From positions 10,411-74,410 of the forward strand of contig JBQCHO010000109.1 of the NCBI GenBank assembly GCA_051954635.1: a stretch of DNA of 64,000 nucleotides. The letters are read 5' to 3'. Source of the stretch: Sphingomonas sp. GTDB lineage: Bacteria > Pseudomonadota > Alphaproteobacteria > Sphingomonadales > Sphingomonadaceae. The number at the start of each line of letters is the position of its first letter. Within the stretch, counting starts at the first letter, position 1. Shown here one piece after another: positions 5,260 through 36,328 of this stretch. The position numbers and the translations under genes are program-made. The notes under the pieces were generated by a model. It searched no databases and was not told the DNA's origin. It worked only from the letters and a program-made list of their open reading frames with translations.

Positions 5260-5261
5260 CC

Positions 5262-6646: not shown

Positions 6647-6648
6647 TC

Positions 6649-6975: not shown

Positions 6976-7241
6976 GCGATGGACGCTCCATCGAAGGTTT
7001 CGAGGTGGTGATCCATCCCAGTCTCGGCTCGCCGCTCCTGCTCGCGGGCGCGCCGCGCGGGCTCGCCATCCTCAACGGGACGCTCGCGGCGGCAATCGGG
7101 CTCGGTTTGCAGCAATGGCTGGTCGGCCTCGTGCTGTGGCTGCTCGGCCATAGTCTCGCGGTGTTCGCGGCGCGACGCGATCCCGATTTCGCGCCCGTCC
7201 TGCTGCGCCACCTGCGCCAGAAGGGACATCTCGGATGCTGA
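6972..7241 (+). CDS. trbD: TrbD (VirB3 family)
   Basis: 89 aa membrane protein between trbC and trbE. The start overlaps the trbC stop. Confidence 0.8.
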   Translation: MSDGRSIEGFEVVIHPSLGSPLLLAGAPRGLAILNGTLAAAIGLGLQQWLVGLVLWLLGHSLAVFAARRDPDFAPVLLRHLRQKGHLGC

Positions 7242-9673: not shown

Positions 9674-9678
9674 CTGCC

Positions 9679-10443: not shown

Positions 10444-10454
10444 TCGAGCGAGTT

Positions 10455-10498
10455 GAGGCAGCGCCGGTCCCGCCCTCCCTACGGCCGGACGCTGCCTC
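10455..10498 (+). repeat. Strong inverted repeat (stem-loop) in the trbJ-trbL spacer
   Basis: GAGGCAGCG (10455-10463) pairs with CGCTGCCTC (10490-10498). An inner CCGG/CCGG extension is possible. Confidence 0.6.
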
Positions 10499-10575
10499 GT
10501 CGCGGGGCCTCGATGGGTCAGCCCCCTTCAAGGCCAGCGGGGCTCCGCGACACATTTTCAGTGACCTGAAGGACA

Positions 10576-11886
10576 ATGTTGATGGGTAACCTCAACGTCA
10601 TCGATCGGTTCATGGCGATCTTTATCCGCTATATCGACAGCGGCTTCGGGTTGCTCGGCGGGGACGTCGCGTTTCTGGCGACGACCCTGATCGGCATCGA
10701 TATCACGCTTGCCGGCCTGTTCTGGGCGATGGGTGGCGAGCAGGACATCATCGGCCGCTTCCTCAAGAAAATTCTCTATGTCGGCGCTTTCGCCTTCATC
10801 CTGAACCGTTTCTCGACCCTCGCCGACGTCATCTTCCGCTCGTTCGCCGCTGCCGGAATCACCGCTGGCGGGGGCACGCTCTCGGCTGAGGACCTGCTCA
10901 AACCGGGGCGCCTCGCCGGTACCGGCTTTTCGGCTGCCTGGCCGCTATTGCATCAGGCCTCGCAGCTGATGGGGTTTGCCGGCTTCTTTGATAATTTCCT
11001 GACGATCGCCGTGCTGCTGTTCGCCTGGGTGGTCGTCATTCTCGCCTTCTTCGTCCTCGCGGTGCAGCTGTTCGTCACCATCATCGAGTTCAAGCTCACG
11101 ACACTCGCTGGCTTTATGCTGGTGCCATTTGCGCTGTGGAACCGCACCAGCTTTCTGGCCGAACGCGTGCTCGGCAATGTCGTCAGCTCGGGCATCAAGG
11201 TGATGGTACTCGCGGTGATCGTCGGCATCGGTTCGGGCTTTTTCGATCAGTTCAGCAGCGCGCTGCAAGGTCAGCAGCCCGATATTGGTCAGGCGTTGAG
11301 CCTGATGCTCGCCTCGCTCACCTTGTTCGGGCTTGGCATCTTCGGTCCGGGTATTGCCTCGGGGCTCGTCTCCGGCGGCCCACAGTTAGGCGCCGGAGCC
11401 GCGCTCGGCACGACGATCGGTGCGGGCGGTGCGGTTGCCCTGGGTGGCGGTGCGGCGGTCGGCGCGGCACGGATTGCGGGCGGCGCCGCGCTCGGTGCGG
11501 TACGTGCCGGTACGGCAATGGGCTCGGCTGCTTCGGCCTCTTACCAACTTGGCCAATCGGCTGCAGGCACGTCGAGCCTCGGCGCCGGGCTTGGCGGGAT
11601 GGCACAGGCCGCTGTCGGCGCTGCGCGCAACAAGGCTGGCAATGCGCTTGGCCTGTCCGGCGCCGCAAAGTCCGGACGCGACGCTGCATGGTCGGGATTC
11701 AATCACGACAAGGCGGCCGTGCCCGGCGCCGACCAGGTTGGCAGCGATGGCGCGCCGGCCTGGGCGCAATCGCTGCGTCGCCAGCAGGATGCCCGTCACC
11801 ACCGCAATGTCGCCTTGCAAACCCTCAAGGAGGGCGACCGCGGCGGCGCCGCTGCGACCCCCGATCTCGACCAGAAGGAGGACTGA
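10576..11886 (+). CDS. trbL: TrbL (VirB6-like polytopic membrane protein)
   Basis: Multiple TM segments and a Gly/Ala-rich C-terminal tail typical of TrbL. Operon position. Confidence 0.85.
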   Translation: MLMGNLNVIDRFMAIFIRYIDSGFGLLGGDVAFLATTLIGIDITLAGLFWAMGGEQDIIGRFLKKILYVGAFAFILNRFSTLADVIFRSFAAAGITAGGGTLSAEDLLKPGRLAGTGFSAAWPLLHQASQLMGFAGFFDNFLTIAVLLFAWVVVILAFFVLAVQLFVTIIEFKLTTLAGFMLVPFALWNRTSFLAERVLGNVVSSGIKVMVLAVIVGIGSGFFDQFSSALQGQQPDIGQALSLMLASLTLFGLGIFGPGIASGLVSGGPQLGAGAALGTTIGAGGAVALGGGAAVGAARIAGGAALGAVRAGTAMGSAASASYQLGQSAAGTSSLGAGLGGMAQAAVGAARNKAGNALGLSGAAKSGRDAAWSGFNHDKAAVPGADQVGSDGAPAWAQSLRRQQDARHHRNVALQTLKEGDRGGAAATPDLDQKED

Positions 11887-11890
11887 TCCG

Positions 11891-12664
11891 ATGCCTTTCA
11901 AGCGCAGCGTCCAGCGTTACGGGCGCACTCCCGAGCCCTCGACGCCGTTCCAGCGCGCCGGACAATTATGGGACGAGCGGATCGGCTCGGCGCGCGTCCA
12001 GGCGCGCAACTGGCGGCTGATCGCGTTCGGCCTGCTCGCGGCATCGGGCGCGATGACCGGCGGCCTGATCTGGCAATCGCTGCAAAGCCGGATCGTCCCC
12101 TATGTCGTCGAGGTCGACCGATTGGGCGAGGCGAGGGCCGTCAACCCGGCGGAGGCGGCCTATCAGCCGACCGATCCGCAGGTCGCGTGGCACCTTGCCC
12201 GGTTCGTCGAGCATGTTCGCTCGCTTTCGCTCGATCCGGTTCTGATGCGCAGCAATTGGCTATCGGCTTACGACTTCGTGACCGACCGCGGCCGGCGCTT
12301 CCTCGATGCCTATGCGCGCGCAGCCGATCCGTTCGGCCATATCGGCGAAAAGACCGTGTCGGTCCAGGTCGACAGCGTGTTGCGCGCGTCGGATCGCTCG
12401 TTTCAGATCGATTGGACTGAGACCGCGTTCGAACGCGGCACCCCCGCCGGCGTCTCGCACTGGACCGGCATTTTCACCGTTGCGATCAAGCCGCCGACCT
12501 CGGCCGACACGCTGCGCAAGAATCCGCTCGGTGTCTATGTCGACGCGATTGACTGGAGCCGCGATCTCGACCCCGTGCCGATCGCGCCGCCGTCGTCGAG
12601 GGCAGCCACGTCGAACCCGAAGCCCGCCGACCGCCCCAATATCGATCCGGAGACGCAGTCATGA
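11891..12664 (+). CDS. trbF: TrbF (VirB8-like)
   Basis: MPFKRSVQRYGRTPEPSTPFQRAGQLWDERIG N-terminus and a single TM (WRLIAFGLLAASGAM). Internal ATG of ORF 11420-12664. Confidence 0.85.
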   Translation: MPFKRSVQRYGRTPEPSTPFQRAGQLWDERIGSARVQARNWRLIAFGLLAASGAMTGGLIWQSLQSRIVPYVVEVDRLGEARAVNPAEAAYQPTDPQVAWHLARFVEHVRSLSLDPVLMRSNWLSAYDFVTDRGRRFLDAYARAADPFGHIGEKTVSVQVDSVLRASDRSFQIDWTETAFERGTPAGVSHWTGIFTVAIKPPTSADTLRKNPLGVYVDAIDWSRDLDPVPIAPPSSRAATSNPKPADRPNIDPETQS

Positions 12665-13515
12665 CCCATTTCGTCCTCAGCGCCATCGGCGCTTCGAGCG
12701 CACTTCTGCTGACAGTCCCCTGCTGCGCGCATCCGCACGCGCGCTCGCACGCACGTCAGGGCATGTCGGCGGCGGCGCGCGTCGCCGCGGCCGATCGCGC
12801 AGCGATGCTCGGTCCTGAGCGCAACGCGTCCGATGCCACACAGGTTTATTCCTATACAGAAGGATCGATCTACCATGTCGTCACCGCGCCGGGGCGCGTC
12901 ACCGATATCGCGCTCGAGCCCGGCGAGACGCTCGGCTCGGTCGCGAGTGGCGACACCGTGCGCTGGATCATCGGCGACACTACCAGCGGCGCCGGCGCCG
13001 GCCAGCGAAGCCATGTCCTGGTCAAGCCGGTCGCTAGCGGCCTATCGACCAATCTCGTCGTCACCACCGATCGGCGTACCTATCACCTCCTGCTGACGAG
13101 CAATGCCCACGACGCGGCGACTTCGATCGCATGGCGCTACCCCGCCGACGCGCTGATCGCAGTGCAGACAGCCCCAAAAACCGTCGCTAAAACCACGCCT
13201 GCCTCGACCGGATTCGATGTCGCGGCGTTGCGGTTCGATTACGTCATTTCCGGGGACCATCCGACCTGGCGACCGCTACGCGCCTTCGACGACGGCGTGC
13301 GAACCTATATCGAATTTCCAGCGGCGCTCGCTACCGACGAGGCACCGCCCTTGTTCGTCATCACCGACGGGCAGGCTGAACTCGTCAACTATCGTGTCGA
13401 TCGACGCTATTATGTCGTCGATCGGCTGTTCGACGTTGCCGAGTTAAGGCTCGGCACGCGCCATCAGCAGGTCGTCCGAATTTCGCGCGCAACGCGCGGA
13501 AAGGGCGGGGCATGA
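12661..13515 (+). CDS. trbG: TrbG (VirB9-like)
   Basis: Signal peptide and a beta-rich body. ATGA overlap with trbF. Operon position. Confidence 0.85.
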   Translation: MTHFVLSAIGASSALLLTVPCCAHPHARSHARQGMSAAARVAAADRAAMLGPERNASDATQVYSYTEGSIYHVVTAPGRVTDIALEPGETLGSVASGDTVRWIIGDTTSGAGAGQRSHVLVKPVASGLSTNLVVTTDRRTYHLLLTSNAHDAATSIAWRYPADALIAVQTAPKTVAKTTPASTGFDVAALRFDYVISGDHPTWRPLRAFDDGVRTYIEFPAALATDEAPPLFVITDGQAELVNYRVDRRYYVVDRLFDVAELRLGTRHQQVVRISRATRGKGGA

Positions 13516-14702
13516 CCGCGGCCGCGATGGAGCCGGCGGGGGACGAGGAAGCGTCGCCGGCGATTGCAGACAAGGTCCCGCCCGAAGCGCTTCGACTTCG
13601 CGCACCTGCAGCGCCGATCACCCGCTTTCAGCGCGGCCGAATCATCCTCCTCGCCGCCGCCGCGGCGTTCGCTGTCGCATTGGTCGCTGGCATGGCGCTG
13701 CGCTCACCCCATGCGTCGACCGCGGTGCCCCAGGTCGATGCGGAAATTCCAGCCAAAGGATCGAGCGAAGCGCTTGCCGGCCTCCCTAAGAGCTACGGTG
13801 ACGTACCGCGTCTGGGACCACCGCTCCCGGGCGATCTGGGCGAGCCGATCCTCGATCGCGCGCGCCAAATCGACGATGGTGCTCCTACGGCTCCGGTCGT
13901 GCCCAACGCCGCTGCAACCGCGCGCCAGGCGCGCCAACAAGCGCTAGAAGCGGCTCGTCGTTCGGCACTGCTTGTGACGCCGATGCGAGGGGAACCTGGG
14001 GCAGGGCGGGCGATGTCGTCATCACCGCGACTCTCCCAAGACCAATCGACCACCAGCCCTGGTATTGGCGGAAGCCAGCCGATTCCTGCCCGGAAAAAAA
14101 TGGACGAGACGACCGATCCTGCGCGGCTGACAGCGCCGGTCTCTCCCTATACGCTCAGCGCCGGCAGCATCATTGCTGCCAGTCTGATCACTGGGGTCAA
14201 TTCGGACTTGCCGGGTATGGTCGTCGCTCAGGTGACCCAGCGCGTGTTCGATAGCGCGACCGGCCGGGTGGTGTTGATCCCTCAGGGTTCGCGCCTGATC
14301 GGACGCTATGATCATGACGTCGTCTTCGGCCAGCAGCGTGCCCTGATTGTCTGGGACCGGCTGATCCTTCCCGATGGCCGCTCACTGCAACTCGACGACG
14401 AACCGGCGACCGACCGGTCCGGCTTTGCCGGGCTCAGCGATCGTGTCGATTCGCACGGCGGCGCCCTGGTCAAGGGCGCGGTGTTGTCGACGCTGCTCGG
14501 CGTCGGCAGCGATCTCAGCTTCAACGGTGGCAGCAAACTCGTCGATGCGCTCCGTCAGGCTGCCGGGCAGAATGTCGCCAATGCCGGCAATCGGCTCGTT
14601 TCCAAGTCGCTCGACATCAAGCCGACCCTCACCATCCGCCCCGGCGCGCGCGTTCTGGTCGTGTTGCACCGCGACCTCGTGCTTGCCCCCTGGCGCCAAT
14701 AG
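13512..14702 (+). CDS. trbI: TrbI (VirB10-like)
   Basis: N-terminal TM, a Pro-rich linker and a conserved C-terminal domain (GTRIPAxL-like SAGSIIAASLITGVNSDLPG). Overlaps the trbG stop. Confidence 0.85.
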   Translation: MTAAAMEPAGDEEASPAIADKVPPEALRLRAPAAPITRFQRGRIILLAAAAAFAVALVAGMALRSPHASTAVPQVDAEIPAKGSSEALAGLPKSYGDVPRLGPPLPGDLGEPILDRARQIDDGAPTAPVVPNAAATARQARQQALEAARRSALLVTPMRGEPGAGRAMSSSPRLSQDQSTTSPGIGGSQPIPARKKMDETTDPARLTAPVSPYTLSAGSIIAASLITGVNSDLPGMVVAQVTQRVFDSATGRVVLIPQGSRLIGRYDHDVVFGQQRALIVWDRLILPDGRSLQLDDEPATDRSGFAGLSDRVDSHGGALVKGAVLSTLLGVGSDLSFNGGSKLVDALRQAAGQNVANAGNRLVSKSLDIKPTLTIRPGARVLVVLHRDLVLAPWRQ

Positions 14703-14712
14703 GAGACGTCAC

Positions 14713-14940
14713 ATGCCCGACATCAAGCTTTCCTGCCTGCCCGACCGCACTCCCGTCAGACTGACTTTGAACTTCCTGCCCGAGCTCCACGACGCGCTCG
14801 TCGACTATGCCCGCTTCTATGCCCAGGCTTATGGGCGCGAGGAAAAGATCAGCGATCTCGTGCCCCACATGCTCAGTGCCTGGCTCGACGCCGATCGCGC
14901 CTTCGCGGCCTTTCGAAAGGAACGAGCCGGACGAGCGTGA
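14713..14940 (+). CDS. DUF2274-family small protein
   Basis: 75 aa. MPDIKLSCLPDRTPVRLTLNFLPELHDALVDYARFYAQAYG matches the small protein that routinely follows trbI. GGAG upstream. Confidence 0.7.
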   Translation: MPDIKLSCLPDRTPVRLTLNFLPELHDALVDYARFYAQAYGREEKISDLVPHMLSAWLDADRAFAAFRKERAGRA

Positions 14941-15027
14941 TCGCCGTCGCCGCTGGTCATCGGTGCACGTCAATGCGAGCCGTTGAGGAGAATGACATGG
15001 GCTACACGGGAAAGTTGGGCCGGACCG

Positions 15028-15246
15028 ATGATTGAGAACAAGGGCGCGCTTGTTGAGCCGCATTTCATCACCGTGACCGAATTTGCTCATCTGGCGCGCG
15101 TGTCGCGGCGCACGATCGATCGCTATCGGCGCGCGCGACCGCCGGGATTCCCGAGTGAATTTGACATCGGACGGGGCAACATGCCGCGACCGCGCTTTCG
15201 TCTCATCGACGTCCGCAAGTGGCTGGATTCGCGGGCTCTGTGGTGA
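15028..15246 (+). CDS. AlpA/excisionase-like helix-turn-helix protein
   Basis: FITVTEFAHLARVSRRTIDRYRR...RFRLIDVRKWL resembles HTH_17/AlpA-type DNA-binding proteins. Start chosen at the internal ATG (MIENKG). Confidence 0.55.
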   Translation: MIENKGALVEPHFITVTEFAHLARVSRRTIDRYRRARPPGFPSEFDIGRGNMPRPRFRLIDVRKWLDSRALW

Positions 15247-15338: not shown

Positions 15339-15486
15339 TGGCAGTACGTCGGATGCGGTGGTGCGCCCCCCGCCTGCCGTGTCCGGCGCCCATTGCGCGT
15401 CTCCGGCCCGGGGGCGGGCGGCCCGTGCTGTCCCCTGCGACCACGAGGCCGGGCGCGGGCTATAACTGCGGGGGCGAGGAGCATGA

Positions 15487-16344
15487 ATGAGCGACGAACC
15501 GACGCCGCCCCATCCCGAGCAGCAGCAGTCGATGCCCGGCGAGACCGAGAAGATGATTCCGCGACCCGACCACGGCGAGCAGAGTTACACCGGTCACGGC
15601 CGACTGAGCGGCAAAAAGGCAGTCATTACCGGCGGCGACAGCGGCATCGGCCGCGCGGTCGCGATCGCATTTGCGCGAGAAGGCGCAGATGTCCTCATTG
15701 CCTATCTGTGCGAAGATGATGACGCGCACGAGACCGCCCGGCTCGTCGAAGAGGCTGGCCAACAGGCCGTGCTTGTTTCCGGCGATCTCAGCGAACCCGC
15801 GCATTGCCGCGCGGTCATCGCCGAGGCGGTCGAGTCATTCGGCGCGATCGACATTCTGGTCAGCAACGCAGCCCACCAGGCCAGCTTCGAGAAGCTCGAG
15901 GATATTACCGATGAGGAGTGGCGGCTGACCTTCGCTACAAATGTCGACCCCTTGTTCTACCTGACCAAGGCAGCGTTGCCCCATCTCGCGGCCGGCGCGT
16001 CAATTATCGCGACGGCGTCGATCAATTCCGATCAGCCGAGCCCGCATCTGCTGCCTTATGCCACCACCAAGGGCACGGTCCGCGACTTTGTCGCAGGTCT
16101 TGCCCAAATGCTCGGCAAACGCGGCATTCGGGTCAATTGCGTCGCGCCCGGACCGGTCTGGACGCCGCTCATTCCCTCGACGATGCCCCCCGAGGCGGTC
16201 AAGGATTTCGGCAAAAATACGCCCCTCGGCCGTGCTGCCCAGCCGAAGGAACTCGCGCCGCCTTATGTTTTGCTGGCAAGCGACGAGGCGAGCTACATCA
16301 CCGGCGCGACGATCCCGGTGACCGGCGGCAGGCCGTTCCTCTAG
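15487..16344 (+). CDS. SDR-family oxidoreductase, YhdF/YdaD general-stress-protein-39-like subfamily
   Basis: Extended N-terminus (PGETEKMIPRPDHGEQSYTGHGRL), then TGGDSGIGRA, NAA, and an active-site Y..K region. Confidence 0.85.
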   Translation: MSDEPTPPHPEQQQSMPGETEKMIPRPDHGEQSYTGHGRLSGKKAVITGGDSGIGRAVAIAFAREGADVLIAYLCEDDDAHETARLVEEAGQQAVLVSGDLSEPAHCRAVIAEAVESFGAIDILVSNAAHQASFEKLEDITDEEWRLTFATNVDPLFYLTKAALPHLAAGASIIATASINSDQPSPHLLPYATTKGTVRDFVAGLAQMLGKRGIRVNCVAPGPVWTPLIPSTMPPEAVKDFGKNTPLGRAAQPKELAPPYVLLASDEASYITGATIPVTGGRPFL

Positions 16345-16351: not shown

Positions 16352-17374
16352 ATGAATTGCATGAAGCTCAAGGCACTCTCGGAGCAGGTCATCCTCATAA
16401 CGGGCGCGAGCTCCGGTATCGGACTCGTCACGGCTCGTCATGCGGCGCGCAAAGGCGCGCGCGTCGTTCTCGTAGCGCGCAACGAAGGTGCGCTCCAAAA
16501 GATTGCGGCGGAGATCGAAGCGGAAGGAGGAAAAGCACTCGCAGTCGCAGCTGATGTCGGCGATGTCACTCAACTTGCTGCCGCGGCGGAGCAGGCGATC
16601 GTGGCTTTCGGTCGGATCGATACCTGGGTGAACGATGCCGGCGTCGCGATCTACGGTCGCCTCGTCGACACGCCCGACGACGAGCATCGCAAGCTTTTCG
16701 AGACGAACTATTTCGGCATGGTTCATGGTTGCTGCGTCGCAGTCCGGCACTTGCGGGAACGGGGCGGCGCACTGATCACCATCGGTTCGATCGCGTCGGA
16801 CCTGCCTTCACCGGTGCTTGGTGCCTATGCGGCCTCGAAACACGCGATCAAGGCTTATGTCGAGGCGCTTCGAATGGAACTTCACGCCGATGATGTGCCC
16901 ATCTCGGTGACCCTGATAAAACCCTCGGGCATCGATACCCCGATCGCCCAGCATGCCGCCAACCACGGACCTGGACGCGCGTTCGTGCCGCCGCCCGTTT
17001 ATGCGCCCGAACTGGTCGCTGACGCGATCCTTTATGCCGCCGAGCATCCGCGGCGGACTATCACCGTCGGCGGCAAGGGGCGCGCTCAGGTGCTTGTAGG
17101 CCAGTATTTTCCCTGGCTCGTCGACAAGCTGACGCCGCTGATGCGTCGGGTGCTTTTCGATGTGGACCGAGCGAAGGTGGCCGACAATGCGTTGGTCGCG
17201 CCTGCCCGCGATGGGCGTGAGCGCTCAGGCGAGGAGGTGCCCCAGAAGCGAAGCCTCTACACCGCGATCGAGCTGCATCCAGTGAAGGCGGTTTGTGCGA
17301 TCGCCATCGCGGTGGCTCTGGCTTCGACACTGCGCGCCTCGCGCCAGCGACAAGGCCTCAGCCGGCTCGTTTGA
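16352..17374 (+). CDS. SDR-family oxidoreductase with C-terminal membrane anchor
   Basis: TGASSGIGL motif, YAASKHA catalytic motif and a C-terminal hydrophobic segment (VKAVCAIAIAVALASTL). Confidence 0.8.
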   Translation: MNCMKLKALSEQVILITGASSGIGLVTARHAARKGARVVLVARNEGALQKIAAEIEAEGGKALAVAADVGDVTQLAAAAEQAIVAFGRIDTWVNDAGVAIYGRLVDTPDDEHRKLFETNYFGMVHGCCVAVRHLRERGGALITIGSIASDLPSPVLGAYAASKHAIKAYVEALRMELHADDVPISVTLIKPSGIDTPIAQHAANHGPGRAFVPPPVYAPELVADAILYAAEHPRRTITVGGKGRAQVLVGQYFPWLVDKLTPLMRRVLFDVDRAKVADNALVAPARDGRERSGEEVPQKRSLYTAIELHPVKAVCAIAIAVALASTLRASRQRQGLSRLV

Positions 17375-17480: not shown

Positions 17481-19058
17481 TCAGATACCCTGACCGAAAT
17501 TGTGCAGCGGAAGACGGATTTTGCACCGAGCGCCGTCAGGACCGATCGTCAGGCTTGTCTCAGCATCGAGATCGTAGACCAGGCTGCGTTCGATCAAGTC
17601 CCGCCCGAAACCCTGGACCTGCTCGGTTTCGGCGACGGCGACGCCGTCCGGGCCGGCATCAAACCACGAGAAGGCGAGTACTGGGCATTCCGCCCCGTCT
17701 TCGATCCGCCAGCTCACATCGACTCGTCCGAGATCATTGCTTAGGCCGCCATATTTGACGGCATTGACCACCAGCTCATGGATGGCGAGGCCAAGCGTGT
17801 CAGCGATCTTGGGTGGAAGGCGCACTGTCGGTCCGGCGACGACTAGCCGATCATTCTCACGCGCATGATGGGCAAGCAGTTCATCCGCGACGAGCGTGGC
17901 TAAGTCGACTCCGGCGTGTGGGTTTCTGGTCATCAGCGATTGCGATCTTGCAAACGCATCGAGCCTCCCTTCAAAATTCATCTGAAAGTCCGCAACACTG
18001 GCGCTGCGCTCGAGTGTCCGGCGCGCGATCGACCGAACCATCGCCAAGGTATTGCGTACCCGGTGCTGCAGCTCGGCGACCAGCAAGCGTTCCTGGTCGC
18101 GGAGGGCCCGGAGATCGTTCACGTCCGACGAGGACCCGAGCCATTCGATGATGGCGCCTTGGCGGTTGCGCACGGGCGAGGCGCGTGTCTGGTACCAGCG
18201 GTAGCGGTCAGCTGCCATATCGTACACGCGATATTCAACGCTGAAAGCTATCGCGCTTTTGGCCAACCGCCAAGCTCGGTGCGCGCGCAGCCGATCGTCG
18301 GGGTGAACGCGTTCAAGCCACCCTTGCCCGAGGCTTGCATCACGCGGCTGGCCGGTGATCTCGCTCCATTGCGGACTAGCCCAAGTCCAGTTTCCATCCT
18401 CCTGGGCGCGCCAGAGGAGGAGCGGAACACCTTCCACCAATTGACTGAGCGCGTCTTTGGCCGTCTCGAGGTCATTAAGTGCAGCGCCGCGCTCGTCTTG
18501 GGACCGGCCGAGTTCTTCATCGAGCCGATAGGCAACCGATGCCAGGGTGCTGAGACGAAGCAGCAACCGCGCGTCCTCGCGCTGAAAGCGGCGCTGTTTA
18601 TCGTGTGAGACTGCCCATATCGCGCCGACTGCGGTTCCGTCGCAGCGAAGCGGCACCATCAGAATTTCGCAGATGCCCGGTTCGACTTTCGGTTCGGCAA
18701 AATATCGGCCAGGATCTTCGAACAGCAGCACGGTGTTGCGCGCCACGACGACGCCGCAGGGCGTTTCGTCAAGCTTGGCGGTTTTCCCGACATAGCCGGA
18801 CCATCTGCCTGAAACGGCGCGCCACAAGCAGCGCACTCCATCTTCTTGTGTGATACCTAGGCTGACGCCCGCGGACTCCGCGATTCCTGCTCTTACAATT
18901 GTATCGGCCAAAGCCTGCAGCGGGTCGCATTCCACTTGTCCCAAAACGGCGGAGAGGCCGGCCATCGCATCGGCCTCAAGCCGGTAGTCCGGCTCTCGCG
19001 TCGATCGAGACGCCAATTGGTCGGTGATCAAGACGTCGTCGAGCGTGGCGGACACCAT
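17481..19058 (-). CDS. Sensor histidine kinase, GAF-PAS-HWE/HisKA_2 type
   Basis: N-terminal GAF-like region, a PAS region (WRAQEDGNWTWASPQWSEITG...VHPDD) and an HWE-type phosphoacceptor ELQHRVRNTLAMV. The ATP-binding part is SWFDAGPDG...GFGRDLIE. Confidence 0.85.
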   Translation of the reverse strand: MVSATLDDVLITDQLASRSTREPDYRLEADAMAGLSAVLGQVECDPLQALADTIVRAGIAESAGVSLGITQEDGVRCLWRAVSGRWSGYVGKTAKLDETPCGVVVARNTVLLFEDPGRYFAEPKVEPGICEILMVPLRCDGTAVGAIWAVSHDKQRRFQREDARLLLRLSTLASVAYRLDEELGRSQDERGAALNDLETAKDALSQLVEGVPLLLWRAQEDGNWTWASPQWSEITGQPRDASLGQGWLERVHPDDRLRAHRAWRLAKSAIAFSVEYRVYDMAADRYRWYQTRASPVRNRQGAIIEWLGSSSDVNDLRALRDQERLLVAELQHRVRNTLAMVRSIARRTLERSASVADFQMNFEGRLDAFARSQSLMTRNPHAGVDLATLVADELLAHHARENDRLVVAGPTVRLPPKIADTLGLAIHELVVNAVKYGGLSNDLGRVDVSWRIEDGAECPVLAFSWFDAGPDGVAVAETEQVQGFGRDLIERSLVYDLDAETSLTIGPDGARCKIRLPLHNFGQGI

Positions 19059-19061
19059 GTC

Positions 19062-19811
19062 CTACCCCATAGCAGCAGACGGCACGGGCTCACACTTCGG
19101 ATTGAGGTGATGGAGATAGGAGGGGTTGAACATCGCGATGCGGTGCAGTGCCGGAAGGTCCGGGATTGTCAGGATGCGGTTGTTGAGGGCGATGAGATTT
19201 TCGCGCCTGAGTTCCTGGAGCGTCCGGTTTACATGGACGGCGGTCATGCCCGTCGCTTCGGCCAGGTCGATCTGGGTGAGCGGCATTTCGCAGCGATCAT
19301 CCTCGGTCAGATGAACCGAATCCAGCCGCTCGAATAGTTCGGAGAACAGATGCGCGATCCGTTCGCGTGCGGTTCTCTGACCCAGGCTGACGGTCCATTC
19401 GCGCTGGATCGCGGCAACGACGAGACTCTCCATCCATAAAGCCCGCGAGATGGCAGGCCGGTGGGTGCACATATGCTCGACCAGATTTCGCGGCATCTCG
19501 GCGTAGGTAACCGGCGTCAGCGCACAGATCGAGTGATCCATTTCGTCGAGGAGGAAGACGTTCAAATCGCACAAGTCGCCGGGGAGGAGAAACGAGACGA
19601 TCTGGCGACGACCGTCGGGAAGCATCTTGTAGCGAAACGCCCAGCCGTCGACGACCAATTTGACGTGATGCGGCGTATCACCCTCGCGTATCAAATCTCG
19701 ACGTGCGCGCGCAGTGCGAACCGTCTGTCGGCAGATTTGAGCTATTGCATCCAGGTCGGCCTGGGAGAGCGGCGCGAACCGTTGCAGCTTCAAGGCCAGC
19801 AGGTCGTGCAA
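19062..19811 (-). CDS. Crp/Fnr-family transcriptional regulator
   Basis: A cNMP-binding-like N-terminal domain and a C-terminal HTH (LTQIDLAEATGMTAVHVNRTLQELR). Only 3 nt separate it from the downstream kinase gene. Confidence 0.85.
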   Translation of the reverse strand: MHDLLALKLQRFAPLSQADLDAIAQICRQTVRTARARRDLIREGDTPHHVKLVVDGWAFRYKMLPDGRRQIVSFLLPGDLCDLNVFLLDEMDHSICALTPVTYAEMPRNLVEHMCTHRPAISRALWMESLVVAAIQREWTVSLGQRTARERIAHLFSELFERLDSVHLTEDDRCEMPLTQIDLAEATGMTAVHVNRTLQELRRENLIALNNRILTIPDLPALHRIAMFNPSYLHHLNPKCEPVPSAAMG

Positions 19812-19941
19812 ATCTCATCTCCGCGCTCAGTTCTCGGGAACAAAACGCCTGACACTGAACTTGGTCGCTCACTTATGTTATTCGACGCAGGGCCAGCCAG
19901 TTTGTATCCGTCTCGTCCACCTCGCGGGGGCTCGACACCAG

Positions 19942-20364
19942 ATGAACCAACCACTTGCCATTGCTGGTAGCACGGTCCTACTCGTCGAAGACGAGTATCT
20001 GATCGCCGACGATCTAGCTCGCGATCTGACGGCGCATGGACTCACCGTTTTCGGTCCCGTGGCAACCGTCGAAGCGGCGGTCGAAGCGCTCGCGCAGAGC
20101 AACCCGGATTTTGCGATTCTCGACATCAACCTGCGCGGAGACCGCGTCTTCCCGCTTGCCGACCATCTGTCGGGGCGCGACATTCCTTATGTCTTCGCCA
20201 CCGGCTATGACGGCGACGCCATTCCGCCGCGGTTCGCAGATGTCGCGCGGCTCGAGAAACCGATCAGGACAGGCGACCTTCTCGTCACGCTCGAGAATCT
20301 CAGTTGCCGGTCGAGCGGATCGCCCACTCCCGAAATCCCCCCGCTGGGCGATCATCGCCACTGA
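19942..20364 (+). CDS. Single-domain response regulator of the FATGUY (PFxFATGY, SdrG/MrrA-like) family
   Basis: Receiver features VLLVEDEYLIADD and FAILDINL (phospho-Asp), with IPYVFATGY matching the PFxFATG[G/Y] signature. No output domain. Confidence 0.8.
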   Translation: MNQPLAIAGSTVLLVEDEYLIADDLARDLTAHGLTVFGPVATVEAAVEALAQSNPDFAILDINLRGDRVFPLADHLSGRDIPYVFATGYDGDAIPPRFADVARLEKPIRTGDLLVTLENLSCRSSGSPTPEIPPLGDHRH

Positions 20365-20419: not shown

Positions 20420-20444
20420 GGAACATGCCCGCTTTCCAGCGGTT
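20420..20444 (+). promoter_or_regulatory. Near-consensus sigma-EcfG-type promoter candidate
   Basis: GGAAC-N16-GGTT, with one mismatch in the -10 compared with CGTT. It lies upstream of the small ORF/SRPBCC/ADH/SDR gene string. Confidence 0.3.
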
Positions 20445-20514
20445 GGCTAGCAATCGCGATGACCCGATATTCGCGGTTGAAATCCAGCAACATAGATTAG
20501 TGGGCAGGTGTGCG

Positions 20515-20703
20515 ATGGACGATGGAAAGAGGCTCGGCGAAGGCGGCGCAAAGGATCGACGTTCATCCTTGCGAGACGGTGATGATGATCCCGCGTTGCG
20601 CCACGAAAGTCGCCAGGCAGTTCTGAACCAGGGCAGCGCGACCCCTGAGGACTATCCCGATCGCGGCGTGTCGACACCGGCTGCGCCAGATGGAGATCGG
20701 TGA
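20515..20703 (+). CDS. Possible small acidic/hydrophilic protein (62 aa)
   Basis: Internal ATG of ORF 20386-20703, downstream of the promoter-like motif. The stop overlaps the next gene's start. No homology recognised. Confidence 0.3.
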   Translation: MDDGKRLGEGGAKDRRSSLRDGDDDPALRHESRQAVLNQGSATPEDYPDRGVSTPAAPDGDR

Positions 20704-21245
20704 TGACACAGACAGATGACGCACCCGCCCATGTCGCAAAATCCGATGACGTCCGGGCGGCGGTTGGCGAAGGCTCGGTCACCGGGCACACCGAAACCAT
20801 CAACCGCCCGCGTAAAGAACTTTATGCATTCTGGCGAAATTTCTCGAACCTTGCTGGTCTGATGGAGAATGTCGTCTCGGTGACCGAGATAGATGGCAAG
20901 CGTTCTCACTGGGTGGTTGCAGGCCCGACAGGCAATCTCGAATGGGATGCCGAGATCACCGAAGATGAGCCCGATCGGCTCATCGCGTGGCGATCGGTAA
21001 AAGGCGCGGATGTCGAACATTCGGGTCGGGTCGAATTCCGCGACGCTCCGCCAGGGCGCGGATCGTGGATCACCGCGACGATCGCCTACAAGCCTCCGGC
21101 GGGTTTTATCGGCAAGGCCGTCGCCAAGGTCACGCAGAAGGAGCCCGCCATACAGGCACGGCGAGACCTTCGCCGGTTCAAGCAATATTGCGAAACCGGC
21201 GAAATCGCGACGTCGACCCCGCCCAATCCCCAACCGAAATCCTGA
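20703..21245 (+). CDS. SRPBCC-family (cyclase/dehydrase-like) protein
   Basis: INRPRKELYAFWRNFSNLAGLMENVVSV...WRSVKGADVEHSGRVEFRDAPPGRG is typical of the SRPBCC/polyketide-cyclase fold family. Confidence 0.75.
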   Translation: MTQTDDAPAHVAKSDDVRAAVGEGSVTGHTETINRPRKELYAFWRNFSNLAGLMENVVSVTEIDGKRSHWVVAGPTGNLEWDAEITEDEPDRLIAWRSVKGADVEHSGRVEFRDAPPGRGSWITATIAYKPPAGFIGKAVAKVTQKEPAIQARRDLRRFKQYCETGEIATSTPPNPQPKS

Positions 21246-21257: not shown

Positions 21258-22439
21258 ATGCGTGCGCTCACCTGGCACGGCAAGCACGACGTCCGCGTCG
21301 ACAGCCATCCCGATCCCGAAATCATCAACCCCCGCGACGCGATCATCAAGGTCACCTCGACCGCGATCTGCGGTTCCGACCTCCATCTGTACGATGCCTA
21401 TATTCCAACCCTCGAAAAGGGCGATATTCTGGGCCACGAGTTCATGGGCGAGGTTGTCGATGTCGGGCCCGGCAGCTCACTCAAAAAGGGCCAGCGGGTC
21501 GTGGTTCCGTTCACCATTTCGTGCGGGAAATGCTTCTTTTGCGAGAAGCAGCAGTTTTCAGCCTGTGCGAATTCGATTCCCGCCGATAATGCCGATCTTG
21601 GGCAGGAACTCTACGGTCACCCCATGACCGGCCTGTTCGGCTATTCGCACCTGACCGGCGGCTATCCGGGCGGTCAGGCTGAATATGCTCGCGTTCCCTA
21701 TTCGGACATCGGGCCGATCGTTATTCCAGACGGGCTCGACGATGATACGGTGTTGTTTCTTTCCGATATCCTCCCGACGGGCTGGATGGCTGCGGAGAAT
21801 TGCGACATCGAGCCTGGCGACACGGTCGCGGTATGGGGCTGCGGTCCGGTCGGCCTGTTCGCTGTACAATCGGCGTTCAAGCTCGGGGCTCACCGCGTAA
21901 TTGCTGTCGACCATTTCCCACATCGGCTCGATCTCGCCAAGCGCTTCGGCGCCGAGACGATCAATTACAAGGAAACCGACACCTATCATGCGCTGATGGA
22001 GATGACTGGCGGCATCGGCCCCGACGCCTGCATCGATGCAGTTGGACTCGAGAGCCACGGCTTCTTTCTCGACAATGTCTGGGACCAGGTGAAGGTCTCG
22101 ACCTTCATGGGTACAGACCGCGCTCATGTTCTTCGCCAGGTCATTATTGCCTGTCGCAAGGGCGGACGAGTTTCCCTGCCTGGCGTTTATGGCGGCTTCG
22201 TCGACAAGTTCCCGATCGGTGCGCTGATGGAGAAGGGGCTGCAGGTGAAGAGCGGTCAGACCCATGTGCAGAAATATCTGCCCAAGCTTCTGAAGATGAT
22301 CGGTGAGGGCGAGCTCGACACCACCTTCCTGATCTCGCACCGGCTGCCGCTCGAAGAAGCGCCCAAGGGCTACGAAATGTTCAAGAACGAACAGAACGAA
22401 TGCACCAAAGTCGTGCTGAAACCGGGGATGGCGGCCTGA
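21258..22439 (+). CDS. Zinc-dependent alcohol dehydrogenase (glutathione-independent formaldehyde dehydrogenase-like)
   Basis: [14 protein letters not shown], structural-zinc Cys cluster ([15 protein letters not shown]) and GCGPVG Rossmann motif. AAGGAG RBS. Confidence 0.9.
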
Positions 22440-22456: not shown

Positions 22457-23230
22457 ATGCCCGATAAACTTGCAGTAATCACCGGCGCTTCGACCGGCAT
22501 CGGCAGAGAAATTGCCAAGCTCGCAGCGCAAGACGGTTTCGATCTCATCACCGTTGCCGACGAGCCGGGACTCGAAGCGGCAGCCGCCGACCTTCGCGCC
22601 GAGGGTGGGCAGATCGAGACGGTCGAAGCCGATTTGGCGACGTTCGAGGGCAATGACGCGCTGCTCGCCGCGATCGGCGACAGGAATGTGGATATCCTGG
22701 TCGCCAATGCCGGACGCGGCCTCGGCCATGCATTTATCGATCAGGACCCGGCGGACTGGCGCCACGTCATCGACACGAATGTCACCGGAACGACCTATCT
22801 GCTGCAGAAAATCGCCCGGAAGATGGTCCAGCAGAGAGGCGGTAAGATCCTTATCACGGGCTCGATCGCCGGATTGATTCCCGGCAGCTTCCAGGCCGTC
22901 TACAATGCGACCAAGGCTTACCTCGACAGCTTCTCCTACGCGCTGCGCGAGGAACTCAAAGATACCGGCGTATCGGTCACCGTGCTCATGCCCGGGCTGA
23001 CTGAGACCGAGTTCTTTCGCCGGGCCGGGATGCTCGACACGCCCGTCGGCGAAGACGAGAAAGCCGATCCTGCGAAGGTCGCCGCCGATGGCTGGAAAGC
23101 AATGAACGACGGTTCCGCCCATATCGTCTCGGGCTTCCAGAACAAGCTGCAGGCAGCGTTGTCGCACATCACGCCGGATACGATCTTGGCGAAAATGCAT
23201 AGCAGATTGGCAGACCCGCAGCGCGGCTGA
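22457..23230 (+). CDS. SDR-family oxidoreductase
   Basis: TGASTGIGRE, NAG and YNATKAY motifs. Internal ATG of ORF 22400-23230, preceded by AAGGAGAG. Confidence 0.85.
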   Translation: MPDKLAVITGASTGIGREIAKLAAQDGFDLITVADEPGLEAAAADLRAEGGQIETVEADLATFEGNDALLAAIGDRNVDILVANAGRGLGHAFIDQDPADWRHVIDTNVTGTTYLLQKIARKMVQQRGGKILITGSIAGLIPGSFQAVYNATKAYLDSFSYALREELKDTGVSVTVLMPGLTETEFFRRAGMLDTPVGEDEKADPAKVAADGWKAMNDGSAHIVSGFQNKLQAALSHITPDTILAKMHSRLADPQRG

Positions 23231-23791
23231 TCAGTCGCTATTTTGCCACTCAGCAAGAGAACGTGAATTGGCGGCACCCGTATCTGCGCCAAAGCTGTTG
23301 CGCATGATCTCGAGCGCCCAGCGTGTGCGTTCGGGGTGCTCGCCGGCCACCGCGTCCTCGGGCACCCACAGACGGTACTCGCGCATATGCGCATCGGCGG
23401 CAGTGAAGAGGACGCAAATGTCGGCGGCAATTCCGGTCAGGATTAGTCGGTCGACGCCCAGGCGCGGCAGAAGTGCTGGAAGCGTCGTTGCGTAAAATCC
23501 GGAGACCTGTGGTTTGATGACCAGATAATCGCAGCGGCGTGGCTGAAGCGCGCGCGCGATCGCCGCTCCCGGGGCATCGCTCTTCGTGACGTGTGCGAGA
23601 AGATCGTCGCGATCGGCTCGCCACGCGCCATAGTGGTCGTTGACATACACTACGGGCGCGCCCGCCGCATCGGCCTGGTCGCGCAACTCCGAAATGGGCG
23701 CTACTATGGTTTCAGCTGATTGCAGGAGCGGCGCTGCACCCTCGAAGTCCAGCGGATTGATCGCATCGATGATGAGCAGTACCACCGCCAT
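23231..23791 (-). CDS. Isochorismatase-family cysteine hydrolase
   Basis: VLLIIDAINPLDFEG..., VVYVNDHYG and ILTGIAADICVLFTA (catalytic Cys context). Confidence 0.85.
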   Translation of the reverse strand: MAVVLLIIDAINPLDFEGAAPLLQSAETIVAPISELRDQADAAGAPVVYVNDHYGAWRADRDDLLAHVTKSDAPGAAIARALQPRRCDYLVIKPQVSGFYATTLPALLPRLGVDRLILTGIAADICVLFTAADAHMREYRLWVPEDAVAGEHPERTRWALEIMRNSFGADTGAANSRSLAEWQNSD

Positions 23792-23979: not shown

Positions 23980-24290
23980 CGGATCTTTCCACGATCAATC
24001 GCTTGACATGATGGCGACCGTTTCGTCCGACGACTTGACCTCGCGCAGCGTCAATCCGGCGTTCGAGCGGATCCTTCGGCTCGACTGAAGACACTTTGCT
24101 GGGGCGCACCTTCGTCGAGTTTGTCCATCCTGACGAGCGCGACGATCTTGGCATAGCGATCGCGGCGATCGACAGAAGAAACAATCCGATCGGCGTCGAG
24201 CACCGACCTGTCGCATCGATGCGCCTACCGCCGGGCTGCGTGGTTATGGCGCGGGCCGCGTCGGCTATGCCGAGGACTTGAGTGACGGGA
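23980..24290 (+). pseudogene. Degraded PAS-domain sensor fragment (multiple frame changes)
   Basis: VNPAFERIL, then a stop at 24086, then in another frame LLGRTFVEFVHPDERDD...GVEHR, then a further shift (AYRRAAWLW). No kinase or output domain follows. Confidence 0.4.
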
Positions 24291-24902
24291 ACCCACGTCG
24301 AACTGCTACGCGACTGGACCGACGGCGCCCCGAGCATTTGTCGGCGTTTATCGATATTCTGACAACGGCGCGGAACTATGCAGGCGCTGTTGGCGGGTCG
24401 CCCATGTGTACGTCCCGATATTCAGCGCGGCAAGATGATGACTGAGGCCGAAAAGTCTTCCCAGGCGGCGGTCGGTCTCTGTGCGACACTGAACATTCCG
24501 CCGGTCAAGCAGGGTCAGTCGGTAGCGATTTTGGCGGTCAACTGCGCCGGGGCCCCACACCTGCAGCGACAACGAGATCGCGCTTGTCGAGGCTCCCGCC
24601 GAACGAACCTCGCCGGCAGTCGAGCGAGCTTGAGCCGAGACAGCGCTCAGGACAAATGGGGTCAAGTATCGCGACCTCTTCAATTTCATGGACCAGGGTT
24701 ATCATCCAGCTTTTGTAGATGATGGCCGAGCGACCGCCTTGCAGGCCGCACTGACCGCGGGCCGAATGGCAATGCGTCCATAGCGCTAACAAGACAAAAC
24801 GCGCTCACATGGGTTAGCCGCTTCATTCGCTGCCCCCGAAACGACCGAGTAAATCCGCCAAAATTTTTCAAATCAGCCGGCATTTCTCGGGTCGGCGACC
24901 GC

Positions 24903-24927
24903 GGAACGGCGGCGGGGCGTACCCGTT
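24903..24927 (+). promoter_or_regulatory. Perfect sigma-EcfG-type (general stress response) promoter motif
   Basis: GGAAC (24903-24907), 16 nt, CGTT (24924-24927). It is followed by AGGAG and the ATG at 24947. Confidence 0.55.
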
Positions 24928-24946: not shown

Positions 24947-25249
24947 ATGACCGACAAACAGAATTACAAAGATCTTCCCCCCGAAGCTGGGGTAAAGCCC
25001 CGCTATACCGAGCCCGATCCGCCGCCCGGAGAAGTCGGCGCGCACGGCCATTATTCTGGACAGGAATATGACGCTCCTGGCCAGGCGGAGTGGCGCAGAA
25101 AGGCTGACAGGTCGCCGCCGCCCGGTGAGTTGAGCGGATCAGGCATCGGCGCCGGCGGCGGACAGGATGGCGAGGACTATGACAGCGATCCGCAAGGTGG
25201 CAGCGGCGTCCTGCCGGCTGCTGGAACGGGGTCAAAAGGGGAAGCCTGA
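24947..25249 (+). CDS. Small hydrophilic Gly/Pro/Asp-rich protein (100 aa)
   Basis: AGGAGA lies 5 nt upstream of the ATG, directly downstream of the EcfG-type motif. Predicted disordered and charged. No family recognised. Confidence 0.5.
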   Translation: MTDKQNYKDLPPEAGVKPRYTEPDPPPGEVGAHGHYSGQEYDAPGQAEWRRKADRSPPPGELSGSGIGAGGGQDGEDYDSDPQGGSGVLPAAGTGSKGEA

Positions 25250-25325
25250 TTTTTGCCGTGACCTCGCTGCGCTTTCGTGAGGGCGGCAGTGGACGGTGTC
25301 TCGATACCTACGCGACCGGGGAACC

Positions 25326-26873
25326 ATGCCAATGGGTCTGCTGCAGCCCCAGCTCATCATCGACGCCGCCGAACGCGAGCGGGGGTTGCGACTCCTGGTC
25401 AATGAGGCTTTGTTTTCGGGCGGGGCAGCAGCACTCACGACGGGCACCATCCTCACAGCCTTTGCTCTGCATCTCGACGCTTCGAACGTTATGATCGGAC
25501 TGCTCGCAAGCGTCCCGTTTGCAGCGCAGCTATTGCAGCTTCCAGCCATTCTGCTGGTTGAGCGGACTCGTCGTCGCAAGCTGATCGCAGTCCTGACCAG
25601 CATCATCGGCCGGCTGATGCTGGGCGTCATGGCCGTCACGGCGTTCTTGAAAGGCTCCTTTGCTCTTGCTCTCTTTCTGGGGGCGCAATTCATCCTCGCC
25701 GGGCTCGGTGCAATCGGCAGCTGCGCCTGGAACGCTTGGTTACGCGATCTCGCGCCAATAGAGCGTCTTGGCGTCGTGTTTGCCCGTCGCACGATGTGGC
25801 TGACTGCAGTGAACCTGGCATTGGGCCTCGCGGCTGCGCTTGCGCTGGCTCTGTCGCCCGAAGGGTCGATCGCTCGCAGCTGGGTTTTTGCCGGCATGTT
25901 CGCGATCGGTTGCCTGACGGGATTGATCAGTGCCCGAATAGTCTCCCAGATGCCCGAACCGCTGATGGCGCCTGCCGAAGGGCCGTTGCACCTCGCGGCG
26001 CTGTTGCGCCGCCCGCTGGGCGACGCCAATTTCAGGCGACTGCTTGCGTTCGTCGCGAGCTGGCAATTCGCGGTCAATCTGGCGACGCCGTTCTTCACTG
26101 TCTTCATCGTTCGCCAACTCGGGTTCGACGTGTCGTTCGTCATGATCCTGAGCGTCGTCAGTCAGGCTGCAAATATCCTCGCCCTTCGCCTCTGGGGCCG
26201 GCTCAGCGACCGGTTTGCGAACAAATCGGTGATGGCAGTCTGCGCTCCGGCTTATATTTTCTCGATCGTCGCGATGATCGGCGCATCGCAAATCCAGTCC
26301 CGGCTCGGGATCATGATCTGGCTGGGCGCGCTTCACGTCGCGATGGGCGTGTCGGTCGCGGGGGTCACGCTAGGGTCGACCAATATCGCGTTGAAACTAT
26401 CACCCAGCGGGTCGGCTACATCCTATGTCGCGGCCAATGCGATGGCGACCGCCGCGGCCGCCGGCTTGGCCCCGATCCTCGGTGGGTTGCTCGCGCAGTT
26501 CTTTGCTCAGCGGCGCTTTGAATTGCTGATGCGCTGGGCGGGACCGCACGGCTTGCTGAGCTTTTCCTTCGGCCTGACCCATTGGGATTTCTATTTTCTG
26601 TTGGCCGGCGTGATCGGCCTTTACGCGGTCCACCGCCTCTCTCTGGTCGCCGAACAGGGAGAAATCGAACGACGCGAAATGGTCAACCAGATGCTCGGCG
26701 AGACTCGCCGCACGATCCGCAATATCTCGACCGTAGCTGGCCTGCGCGCAGCGACCGATTTGCCGGCTACGCTGCTGCGCGATGCCCGCAAACGACTGCG
26801 TCGGCGTCTCCCAACGGCGCCGCGCTCCAACCGTCACCTATCGACACCGGCAAAAAAGGAGGAGCATCAATGA
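25326..26873 (+). CDS. MFS transporter
   Basis: About 12 hydrophobic segments with the MFS-like loop LLVERTRRRK, and a cytoplasmic C-terminal tail. An alternative GTG start is at 25296. Confidence 0.8.
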   Translation: MPMGLLQPQLIIDAAERERGLRLLVNEALFSGGAAALTTGTILTAFALHLDASNVMIGLLASVPFAAQLLQLPAILLVERTRRRKLIAVLTSIIGRLMLGVMAVTAFLKGSFALALFLGAQFILAGLGAIGSCAWNAWLRDLAPIERLGVVFARRTMWLTAVNLALGLAAALALALSPEGSIARSWVFAGMFAIGCLTGLISARIVSQMPEPLMAPAEGPLHLAALLRRPLGDANFRRLLAFVASWQFAVNLATPFFTVFIVRQLGFDVSFVMILSVVSQAANILALRLWGRLSDRFANKSVMAVCAPAYIFSIVAMIGASQIQSRLGIMIWLGALHVAMGVSVAGVTLGSTNIALKLSPSGSATSYVAANAMATAAAAGLAPILGGLLAQFFAQRRFELLMRWAGPHGLLSFSFGLTHWDFYFLLAGVIGLYAVHRLSLVAEQGEIERREMVNQMLGETRRTIRNISTVAGLRAATDLPATLLRDARKRLRRRLPTAPRSNRHLSTPAKKEEHQ

Positions 26874-29125: not shown

Positions 29126-29351
29126 CGGTGGGCGTGCTTCGACCCTCCAAGGGGTTTGCCTCGCTCGGGATGATCGCCCCCGCTCGGCAGAGTTCTGGGC
29201 CGCCACGAGCTCAGTGTCGGGTGCGTAGCCGCCCTTCGCTCGCGAACTGTCTGCTTGTAGGCGATGGTGCCGAAGATCGCCGAAACATCCGCTCGCACCA
29301 CCCCATCACGATGCCGGGTGCAGACGCTCGCCATTCACGGAGCGGTTGCTA

Positions 29352-36314: not shown

Positions 36315-36328
36315 CAAGGGGGGCGGGC

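Follow-up and report, generated by a model that had tools for sequence, protein, structure and literature searches.

A Crp/Fnr, HWE kinase and FATGUY receiver cassette beside a Tn4371-like backbone in Sphingomonas: a candidate portable stress sub-regulon

Introduction

What does a small signalling module that lies beside conjugation genes have to do with the general stress response (GSR) of its host, and is it part of the mobile element at all? This question is raised by a 64-kb stretch of an 80,427-bp metagenome-assembled Sphingomonas sp. contig (JBQCHO010000109.1, assembly GCA_051954635.1, positions 10,411 to 74,410; hereafter the window, to which all coordinates refer unless a locus is named). 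Here, a Tn4371-like conjugative backbone is followed by genes for a Crp/Fnr-family regulator, a GAF-PAS-HWE sensor histidine kinase and a divergently transcribed response regulator of the receiver-only FATGUY type. A previous sequence-only reading took this trio for cargo of an integrative and conjugative element (ICE), which could feed signals into the PhyR-NepR-EcfG switch of the host. The output of FATGUY receivers and the wiring of many alphaproteobacterial HWE kinases are only partly understood. We followed up the locus by comparative sequence analysis. Judged by sequence and gene order, the trio is an instance of a chromosomal cassette that is common in Alphaproteobacteria and conserved across orders, and in sphingomonads it is joined to a set of stress genes behind candidate EcfG-type promoters.

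Results

The signalling trio

The gene coordinates confirmed the layout that had been described for the trio. The Crp/Fnr regulator (249 aa, 19062-19811, minus strand) and the kinase (525 aa, 17481-19058, minus strand) are encoded in a common operon with a gap of only 3 nt, the Crp stop codon lying at 19062-19064 and the kinase ATG at 19058, and this tight junction is repeated in the orthologues with gaps of 2-5 nt. The receiver gene (140 aa, 19942-20364, plus strand) points in the opposite direction.

The kinase carries the GAF, PAS_3 and HWE_HK domains of Pfam, the last (PF07536) with 78 bits at a cutoff of 22.8. Its HRxxN box, which defines HWE/HisKA2 kinases (PMC5898713), reads ELQHRVRNTL as reported before, and in 14 orthologues H332, R335 and N336 do not vary. 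The nearest solved relative is the Brucella LOV-HK structure 6ph4 (E=2e-30), deposited as 'Blue-light-activated histidine kinase'. Brucella LOV-HK acts in the general stress response. The HWE family is described with a W-x-E motif in the catalytic domain; in the present subfamily, the invariant W465 is followed by F and then D467, giving W-x-D. Full-length orthologues of the kinase share 53-73% identity and come mostly from metagenomes.

For the receiver, Response_reg was the sole Pfam family found, with a score of 28.5 bits just below the cutoff of 30.2 and covering profile positions 1-84 of 111. Among solved structures, the receiver matches SdrG (5ieb, E=1.5e-16) and Sma0114 (2lpm, E=2.7e-15) best, and because these are its closest solved relatives, the resemblance reflects homology rather than a chance motif. 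The signature IPYVFATGY aligns to IPFVFATGG of SdrG and shows one conservative departure (Y for F) from the PFxFATG[G/Y] motif, while orthologous receivers carry PFVFATGY; the acidic pocket, the phospho-Asp and the Lys are kept in the alignment with SdrG. The earlier description of a receiver-only protein of the FATGUY type was thus borne out. Its more specific placement in the SdrG/MrrA class held for membership in the FATGUY single-domain family but not for orthology, for which reciprocal best matches have been used as the criterion (PMC5964349). The protein shares 44% identity with SdrG of the same genus, compared to 48-57% with Crp-linked receivers of other orders. In a neighbour-joining tree (about 110 columns, no support values, low resolution) it falls among the Crp-linked receivers, with SdrG, Sma0114 and the plasmid-borne Swit_5346 outside. 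On these identity figures and the tree grouping, we therefore take the receiver as a FATGUY paralogue, and not an orthologue, of SdrG.

The Crp/Fnr regulator belongs to the FixK/Fnr branch and contains the Pfam domains cNMP_binding (PF00027, 45 bits) and HTH_Crp_2 (PF13545, 57 bits), both above cutoff. FixK2 (4i2o, E=3e-12) is the nearest solved relative. Scores nevertheless stayed under the cutoff of every named NCBIfam equivalog, with 42-92 bits for FnrL, FixK and Fnr versus cutoffs of 228-300. Reading of the sequence revealed no FNR-type Cys cluster, only a lone Cys in the N-terminus, and we infer that the effector domain does not bind cyclic nucleotide monophosphates. In the alignment with FixK2, the E--SR recognition helix of the FixK/FNR proteins that read TTGAT-N4-ATCAA was not present: the helix reads AVHVNR versus LETVSR in FixK2, with the base-contacting Glu and Ser changed. 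Stand-alone homologues of the regulator (42-47% identity) also occur, without an adjacent kinase or receiver gene, on plasmids of Methylobacterium, Sphingomonas and Aureimonas (L099-L102); two of these four (L100 and L101) lie near catalase or DUF4142 genes.

Distribution of the cassette across Alphaproteobacteria

A survey seeded with the kinase, using one genome per species, yielded 80 loci of related HWE kinases, in which a Crp homologue was sought within 3.5 kb. Such a homologue (45-58% identity) was found in 56/80 loci, and 43/80 contained a receiver homologue as well. The divergent Crp/receiver pair, with the two genes 107-250 bp apart, is present in about 29 distinct loci, nearly all of whose receivers carry PFxFATGY. 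Hosts include Sphingomonas, Roseomonas, Methylobacteriaceae, Mesorhizobium, Devosia, Bradyrhizobium and others, so that the pair spans Sphingomonadales, Hyphomicrobiales and Acetobacteraceae. In five independent orthologous loci, the receiver gene is divergent from the Crp-kinase genes and the neighbours are repeated as well, the usual order past the receiver being an open reading frame (ORF) of 56-62 aa, SRPBCC, a zinc-dependent alcohol dehydrogenase (Zn-ADH), a short-chain dehydrogenase/reductase (SDR) and a convergent isochorismatase. Outside the Sphingomonas clade, no further gene was conserved beside the trio in any of the compared cassette loci.

Neither TrbI nor TrbG was encoded in any of the 80 kinase-seeded loci, and the five orthologous loci contained no conjugation genes. 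The trio is thus not specific to ICEs. In the open-access literature, we found no paper combining a Crp regulator, an HWE kinase and a FATGUY receiver. Two described proteins were considered and set aside: the EcfG-regulated Crp-like gene #0072 of S. melonis, whose neighbour #0073 encodes a phospholipase-D-type enzyme, and CstR of M. extorquens, described in a 2026 preprint as an orphan receiver with no mention of Crp or HWE proteins.

A candidate operator between the divergent genes

The region between the Crp and receiver genes contains a palindrome with the consensus cTTAACcTATGTTAtT, whose core positions hardly vary when the regions are aligned on the box. In its strict form, T[AC]AC-N4-GT[TG]A, it occurs in 12/28 cassette intergenic regions, compared to an expectation of 0.18; none of 1000 shuffles gave more than 2. 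A position weight matrix (PWM), trained on the same 28 regions that it was then used to score, gave values above 9.5 in 22 of them, with a mean of 13.6 versus 3.3 for shuffled sequences. In the window, candidate operator box 1 (GCTCACTTATGTTATT, TCAC-N4-GTTA, 19867-19882) reaches a PWM score of 19.1 and is the best and the sole site with a score of at least 14 in the 64 kb. The altered AVHVNR helix would fit a box unlike the FNR/FixK consensus. A weak -10-like hexamer (TATCCG, CATCCG, TATTCG, CATAAT) is seen in many loci towards the receiver gene, its first base being 29-31 nt away from the centre of the box. This is the box-to-(-10) spacing of class II activation as at FNR/FixK promoters.

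A second candidate operator, box 2 (AGCAACATAGATTAGT, 20486-20501), was predicted by the PWM upstream of the small ORF behind the receiver gene, about 43 nt downstream of the predicted start of the promoter P2 described below. It lies within a conserved stretch of the orthologue alignment, where the palindrome reads AGCAACATAG(G/A)TTAGT, and scores 14.3 in the orthologous loci L003, L095 and L096 and 12.8 in L006.

EcfG-type promoters and the adjoining stress genes

The EcfG motif of S. melonis has been described as GGAAC-N17-20-GTT (PMC6599016). Comparison of the orthologues revealed a candidate promoter of this type, P1, upstream of the receiver gene (19837-19862, plus strand), consisting of a GGAAC element and a weak -10 (AACTT). 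Its element GGAACAAA, just upstream of box 1, is kept in 6/6 sphingomonad orthologous loci, of which L003, L006 and L096 also have a GTT -10. A further EcfG-type promoter, P2 (GGAACATGCCCGCTTTCCAGCGGTT, GGAAC-N17-GTT, 20420-20444, plus strand), is located past the receiver gene and before the small ORF; in an alignment of three orthologues, GGAAC and GTTGG do not change, in contrast to the variable spacer. A GGAAC...GTT arrangement past the receiver gene was found in 5/6 loci, the exception being L097, whose region ends just beyond this gene. Altogether, the window contains six matches to GGAAC-N17-20-GTT, three of which (20420, 24903 and 36539) are intergenic and correctly oriented; two of those three lie in a segment of lower G+C content that extends from the conjugative backbone to a tRNA gene (see below), and the match at 36539 precedes a chromosomal DUF2171 gene.

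Behind P2, a conserved hydrophilic ORF of 62 aa (20515-20703, plus strand; 78% mean column identity in four orthologues), whose stop overlaps the SRPBCC start, is followed on the same strand by genes for SRPBCC (20700-21245), a Zn-ADH (21258-22439) and an SDR (about 22457-23230), all assigned with Pfam. The 62-aa ORF had no Pfam or NCBIfam match; it was also considered as a NepR-like protein, but showed no family match and no likeness by eye. The isochorismatase-family hydrolase (Pfam; 23231-23791, minus strand) forms the convergent end of the block and is syntenic in L003, L095, L096 and L097. The order SRPBCC, Zn-ADH, SDR is repeated in L003, L006 and L096, where the 6.3-kb block as a whole is syntenic. 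In L095 (6453-6645), the EcfG-type promoter and box 2 remain, whereas the small ORF and the SRPBCC and Zn-ADH genes are deleted, as is the SDR gene except for a C-terminal fragment of 33 aa.

A second EcfG-type promoter, GGAAC-N16-CGTT, was found by the motif scan at 24903-24927 (plus strand), directly before a hydrophilic ORF of 100 aa (24947-25249, plus strand) that had no Pfam or NCBIfam match. This ORF opens a series of plus-strand genes (24947-29125), of which those that follow encode a major facilitator superfamily transporter and a protein of 751 aa without a match in Pfam or NCBIfam. The interval from the isochorismatase gene to this promoter contains the remnant of a PAS-domain gene (23990-24310, plus strand), which is broken by stops or a frameshift (its translation contains VNPAFERILRLD, directly followed by a stop, and further on FVEFVHPDERDD) and may be a decayed second sensor kinase.

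The EcfG regulon of S. melonis includes nicotinamidase-type amidases, SDRs, a Zn-ADH and an ATP-dependent ligase, and according to Pfam and NCBIfam these kinds of genes also populate the lower-GC segment. Because of the EcfG-type promoters and the regulon-like genes, the sequence supports control of the block by the host GSR. The promoters speak for the host GSR acting on the block and not for the block feeding the GSR. A scan of the block for sigma-70 promoters and terminators was uninformative.

Genomic setting of the block

The backbone (442-15246, plus strand) encodes, according to Pfam and NCBIfam, the RlxS relaxase, TraG, TrbB/C/D/E/J/L/F/G/I, DUF2274 and, as its last gene, a small HTH_17 protein (14983-15246, plus strand). 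RlxS matches NCBIfam NF041267 with 982 bits (cutoff 850), and together with TraG and the trbBCDEJLFGI mating-pair module it makes up the gene set of a Tn4371-type ICE. The left end of the element lies outside the 64-kb window; contigs that reach further left contribute DUF736, HTH_17, TraF peptidase and SLT. Between the ICE end and the kinase gene there are two short-chain dehydrogenase genes (15487-16344 and 16352-17374, plus strand; Pfam adh_short and adh_short_C2). G+C content amounts to 0.62-0.675 in the backbone, 0.58-0.63 over 15.4-36.3 kb and 0.65-0.70 past a tRNA-Ala(cgc) gene (36329-36404, minus strand; ARAGORN). This tRNA gene is taken as the right boundary of the acquired segment, because the similarity to a metagenome contig (L098), whose right flank is about 97% identical from the tRNA-Ala through DUF2171, is lost about 5 nt past the tRNA 3' end.

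The tRNA-Ala(cgc)-DUF2171 region is a three-way variable site (window 36329-36660; L003 1100-1520; L098 2700-3330), in which the right flank is kept, including the GGAAC-N17-GTT promoter of DUF2171, and the left flanks are wholly different in the three genomes. Since no two of these related genomes share a left flank, the tRNA-Ala is a hotspot whether the block is cargo or accreted.

Is the block then cargo of the ICE, as the sequence-only reading had assumed? We consider this fairly probable. The physical part of the claim stands, since the trio is joined to the RlxS/Trb backbone in a 21-kb lower-GC segment that ends at the tRNA-Ala. Cargo status as such does not follow from it, as the same block is found by the tRNA-Ala in L003, another Sphingomonas, where ICE genes are missing. 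There, it has the same orientation and is separated from tRNA-Ala-DUF2171 by no more than an ion-channel gene, its G+C content is close to that of the host, ordinary glycosidase genes follow past the kinase gene, and conjugation genes are missing over the next 10 kb. The block could accordingly be an island of its own at the tRNA-Ala hotspot, or an older segment resident there, which the ICE, ending at about 15.3-15.4 kb, merely abuts by tandem accretion; we rate this as the less probable of the two origins, but as one to be taken seriously. In S. paeninsulae, the Trb end of a related ICE faces a tRNA 3' end, with the latter within 1.6 kb of DUF2274, and the lower G+C of the segment compared to the backbone points in the same direction. 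Moreover, the 10-mer GGGGGCGGGC occurs in the window only at 15410-15419, in the gap past the last ICE gene, and at 36319-36328, abutting the tRNA-Ala 3' end; these direct repeats with 20.9 kb between them may be att-like remnants, but have a chance expectation of about 4%. A general direct-repeat search for an internal att site returned only chance GC-rich matches. No second copy of the tRNA-Ala 3' end was found in the window when a 25-mer and a 16-mer were sought; in the present sequence, backbone and segment share one right-hand boundary. The same junction between TrbI and the block is, furthermore, present in contigs of two further samples.

Discussion

The explanation towards which we lean, with modest confidence, is that of a portable, self-controlled stress sub-regulon that is transcribed via the host general stress sigma factor and resides within or next to an ICE. 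In such a circuit, the Crp-family protein would bind the palindromes of boxes 1 and 2. It would activate the receiver gene from a class II position, the -10-like hexamer being located about 30 nt from the box centre. At the stress operon driven by the host EcfG, it could serve as a gate, bound downstream of where transcription starts. The receiver would be phosphorylated by the kinase and might then target either the Crp-family factor or other HWE/HisKA2 proteins. That the Crp gene is co-conserved with its own palindromic operator suggests a circuit complete in itself and not simply an input to PhyR.

Several observations weigh against this explanation. The palindrome is assigned to the Crp regulator by association only, the PWM was scored on its own training regions, and box 2 reaches only 10.1 in the window itself. 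The class II geometry was judged by eye, and no -10 column of high information content emerged across all cassette loci. On the promoter side, P1 of the window is without the GTT -10, and the exact motif GGAAC-N16/17-CGTT is not enriched, with two occurrences in the window versus 0.85 expected in shuffles; because of this lack of enrichment, the relaxed Sphingomonas motif and the cross-species alignment were needed. Finally, the palindromic box was found at only 1/4 of the stand-alone plasmid Crp homologues, and since these are mostly without it, the box should not be generalised to the wider Crp subfamily.

One alternative is close to the earlier proposal: kinase and FATGUY receiver could serve mainly as an additional input, through which phosphate reaches the PhyT/PhyK-PhyR switch of the host, so that acquisition of the element would rewire when the host GSR fires. 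This is rather unlikely in our view, although it could coexist with the sub-regulon described above. FATGUY receivers and HWE/HisKA2 kinases are promiscuous (PMC5964349), and phosphotransfer or crosstalk to PhyR or PhyT is plausible. The best solved relatives, SdrG for the receiver and Brucella LOV-HK for the kinase, fit such a role, as do the GGAAC elements upstream of the receiver gene in orthologues; positive feedback of EcfG on GSR signalling genes is known. Against this, the receiver appears as a paralogue of SdrG, it is about equally similar to Sma0114, which works in catabolite repression and has no demonstrated GSR role, and the cassette brings its own transcription factor and operator. 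Besides that, no PhyR, PhyT, NepR or EcfG partner was found in the window, and the lack of phyR, nepR and ecfG that had been noted before was likewise the outcome when the large ORFs were scanned with Pfam and RpoE and SdrG served as a weak tblastn probe. Signs of decay could also suggest that the trio is a passenger that at present has no function on the element: about 200 bp past the block there is a PAS-domain fragment with a frameshift, a frameshifted aminotransferase lies beside the tRNA, the receiver motif has Y for F, and the -10 of P1 is degenerate. We regard this as very improbable, as all eight block genes are intact and of full length relative to their orthologues, 99%-identical copies exist in several samples, and box 1 is the best-scoring site of the whole window.

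A more daring version of the favoured sub-regulon would be a hitherto undescribed 'three-component' system, in which the phosphorylated FATGUY receiver binds the co-encoded, ligand-less Crp factor and thereby switches its activity at TAAC-N4-GTTA operators. We consider this speculative and doubtful. If true, it would provide a direct transcriptional output for single-domain receivers, and the cassette would constitute a horizontally transferable controller layered on EcfG-dependent promoters. In any case, the cassette with its candidate operator, candidate partner factor and small operon behind an EcfG-type promoter offers a compact testable system.

Comparison with known systems

The window receiver resembles SdrG of Sphingomonas melonis and MrrA of Caulobacter in being receiver-only with a PFxFATG[G/Y]-type motif, and it shares with SdrG the host genus and a gene near that of an HWE kinase. 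It differs from both in its divergent pairing with a Crp gene and a conserved operator, a pairing that we did not find in the open-access literature. Sma0113/Sma0114, encoded on the accessory replicon pSymA of Sinorhizobium meliloti and described for catabolite repression and polyhydroxybutyrate (PHB), likewise consist of a dedicated HWE kinase and a FATGUY receiver, but here the receiver gene follows the kinase gene on the same strand. This layout, without an adjacent Crp gene, was also seen in the Rhizobium/Sinorhizobium survey loci L027, L029 and L033. With regulators of the FixK2/FnrL type, the cassette regulator has the two-domain Crp fold in common, and its box-to-(-10) spacing fits class II; in contrast to these, its predicted box is TAAC-N4-GTTA rather than TTGAT-N4-ATCAA, its helix is AVHVNR rather than E--SR, and within the cassette its gene always shares an operon with that of an HWE kinase.

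Among mobile elements, ICE3 of Sphingopyxis granuli TFA occupies a tRNA site in a sphingomonad, and its cargo has been reported as stress-responsive (bioRxiv 10.64898/2025.12.11.693706). Compared by this description only, it differs in that histidine kinases, Crp regulators and EcfG promoters are unmentioned for its cargo. The conjugative replicon pSWIT01 of Rhizorhabdus wittichii RW1 (L009, 8493-10685, Swit_5344-5346) carries SRPBCC-ZnADH behind a perfect GGAAC-N16-CGTT and, beside them, the FATGUY-like receiver Swit_5346 (IPFVLATGG), but there is no adjacent Crp gene or HWE kinase, and Swit_5346 groups with SdrG and not with the cassette receivers. Here too, a FATGUY receiver is paired with this stress cassette on mobile DNA. 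Together, the linkage to the backbone and the pSWIT01 pieces suggest that parts of the GSR regulon move between sphingomonads with local controllers, which is relevant to the spread of stress tolerance in soil and plant-surface communities.

Further observations

Three additional features of the window deserve mention. Adjoining the tRNA gene, two overlapping ORFs (35342-36314, plus strand) together make up a class I/II aminotransferase, which is probably a frameshifted pseudogene at the island edge. The lower-GC segment also encodes a stand-alone ATP-dependent DNA ligase (29346-30398, plus strand; NCBIfam PRK08224 above cutoff), with no Ku gene seen nearby. In the chromosomal part, a 1148-aa fusion protein (46232-49678, plus strand) combines glycoside hydrolase 18, polysaccharide deacetylase and family-2 glycosyltransferase domains.

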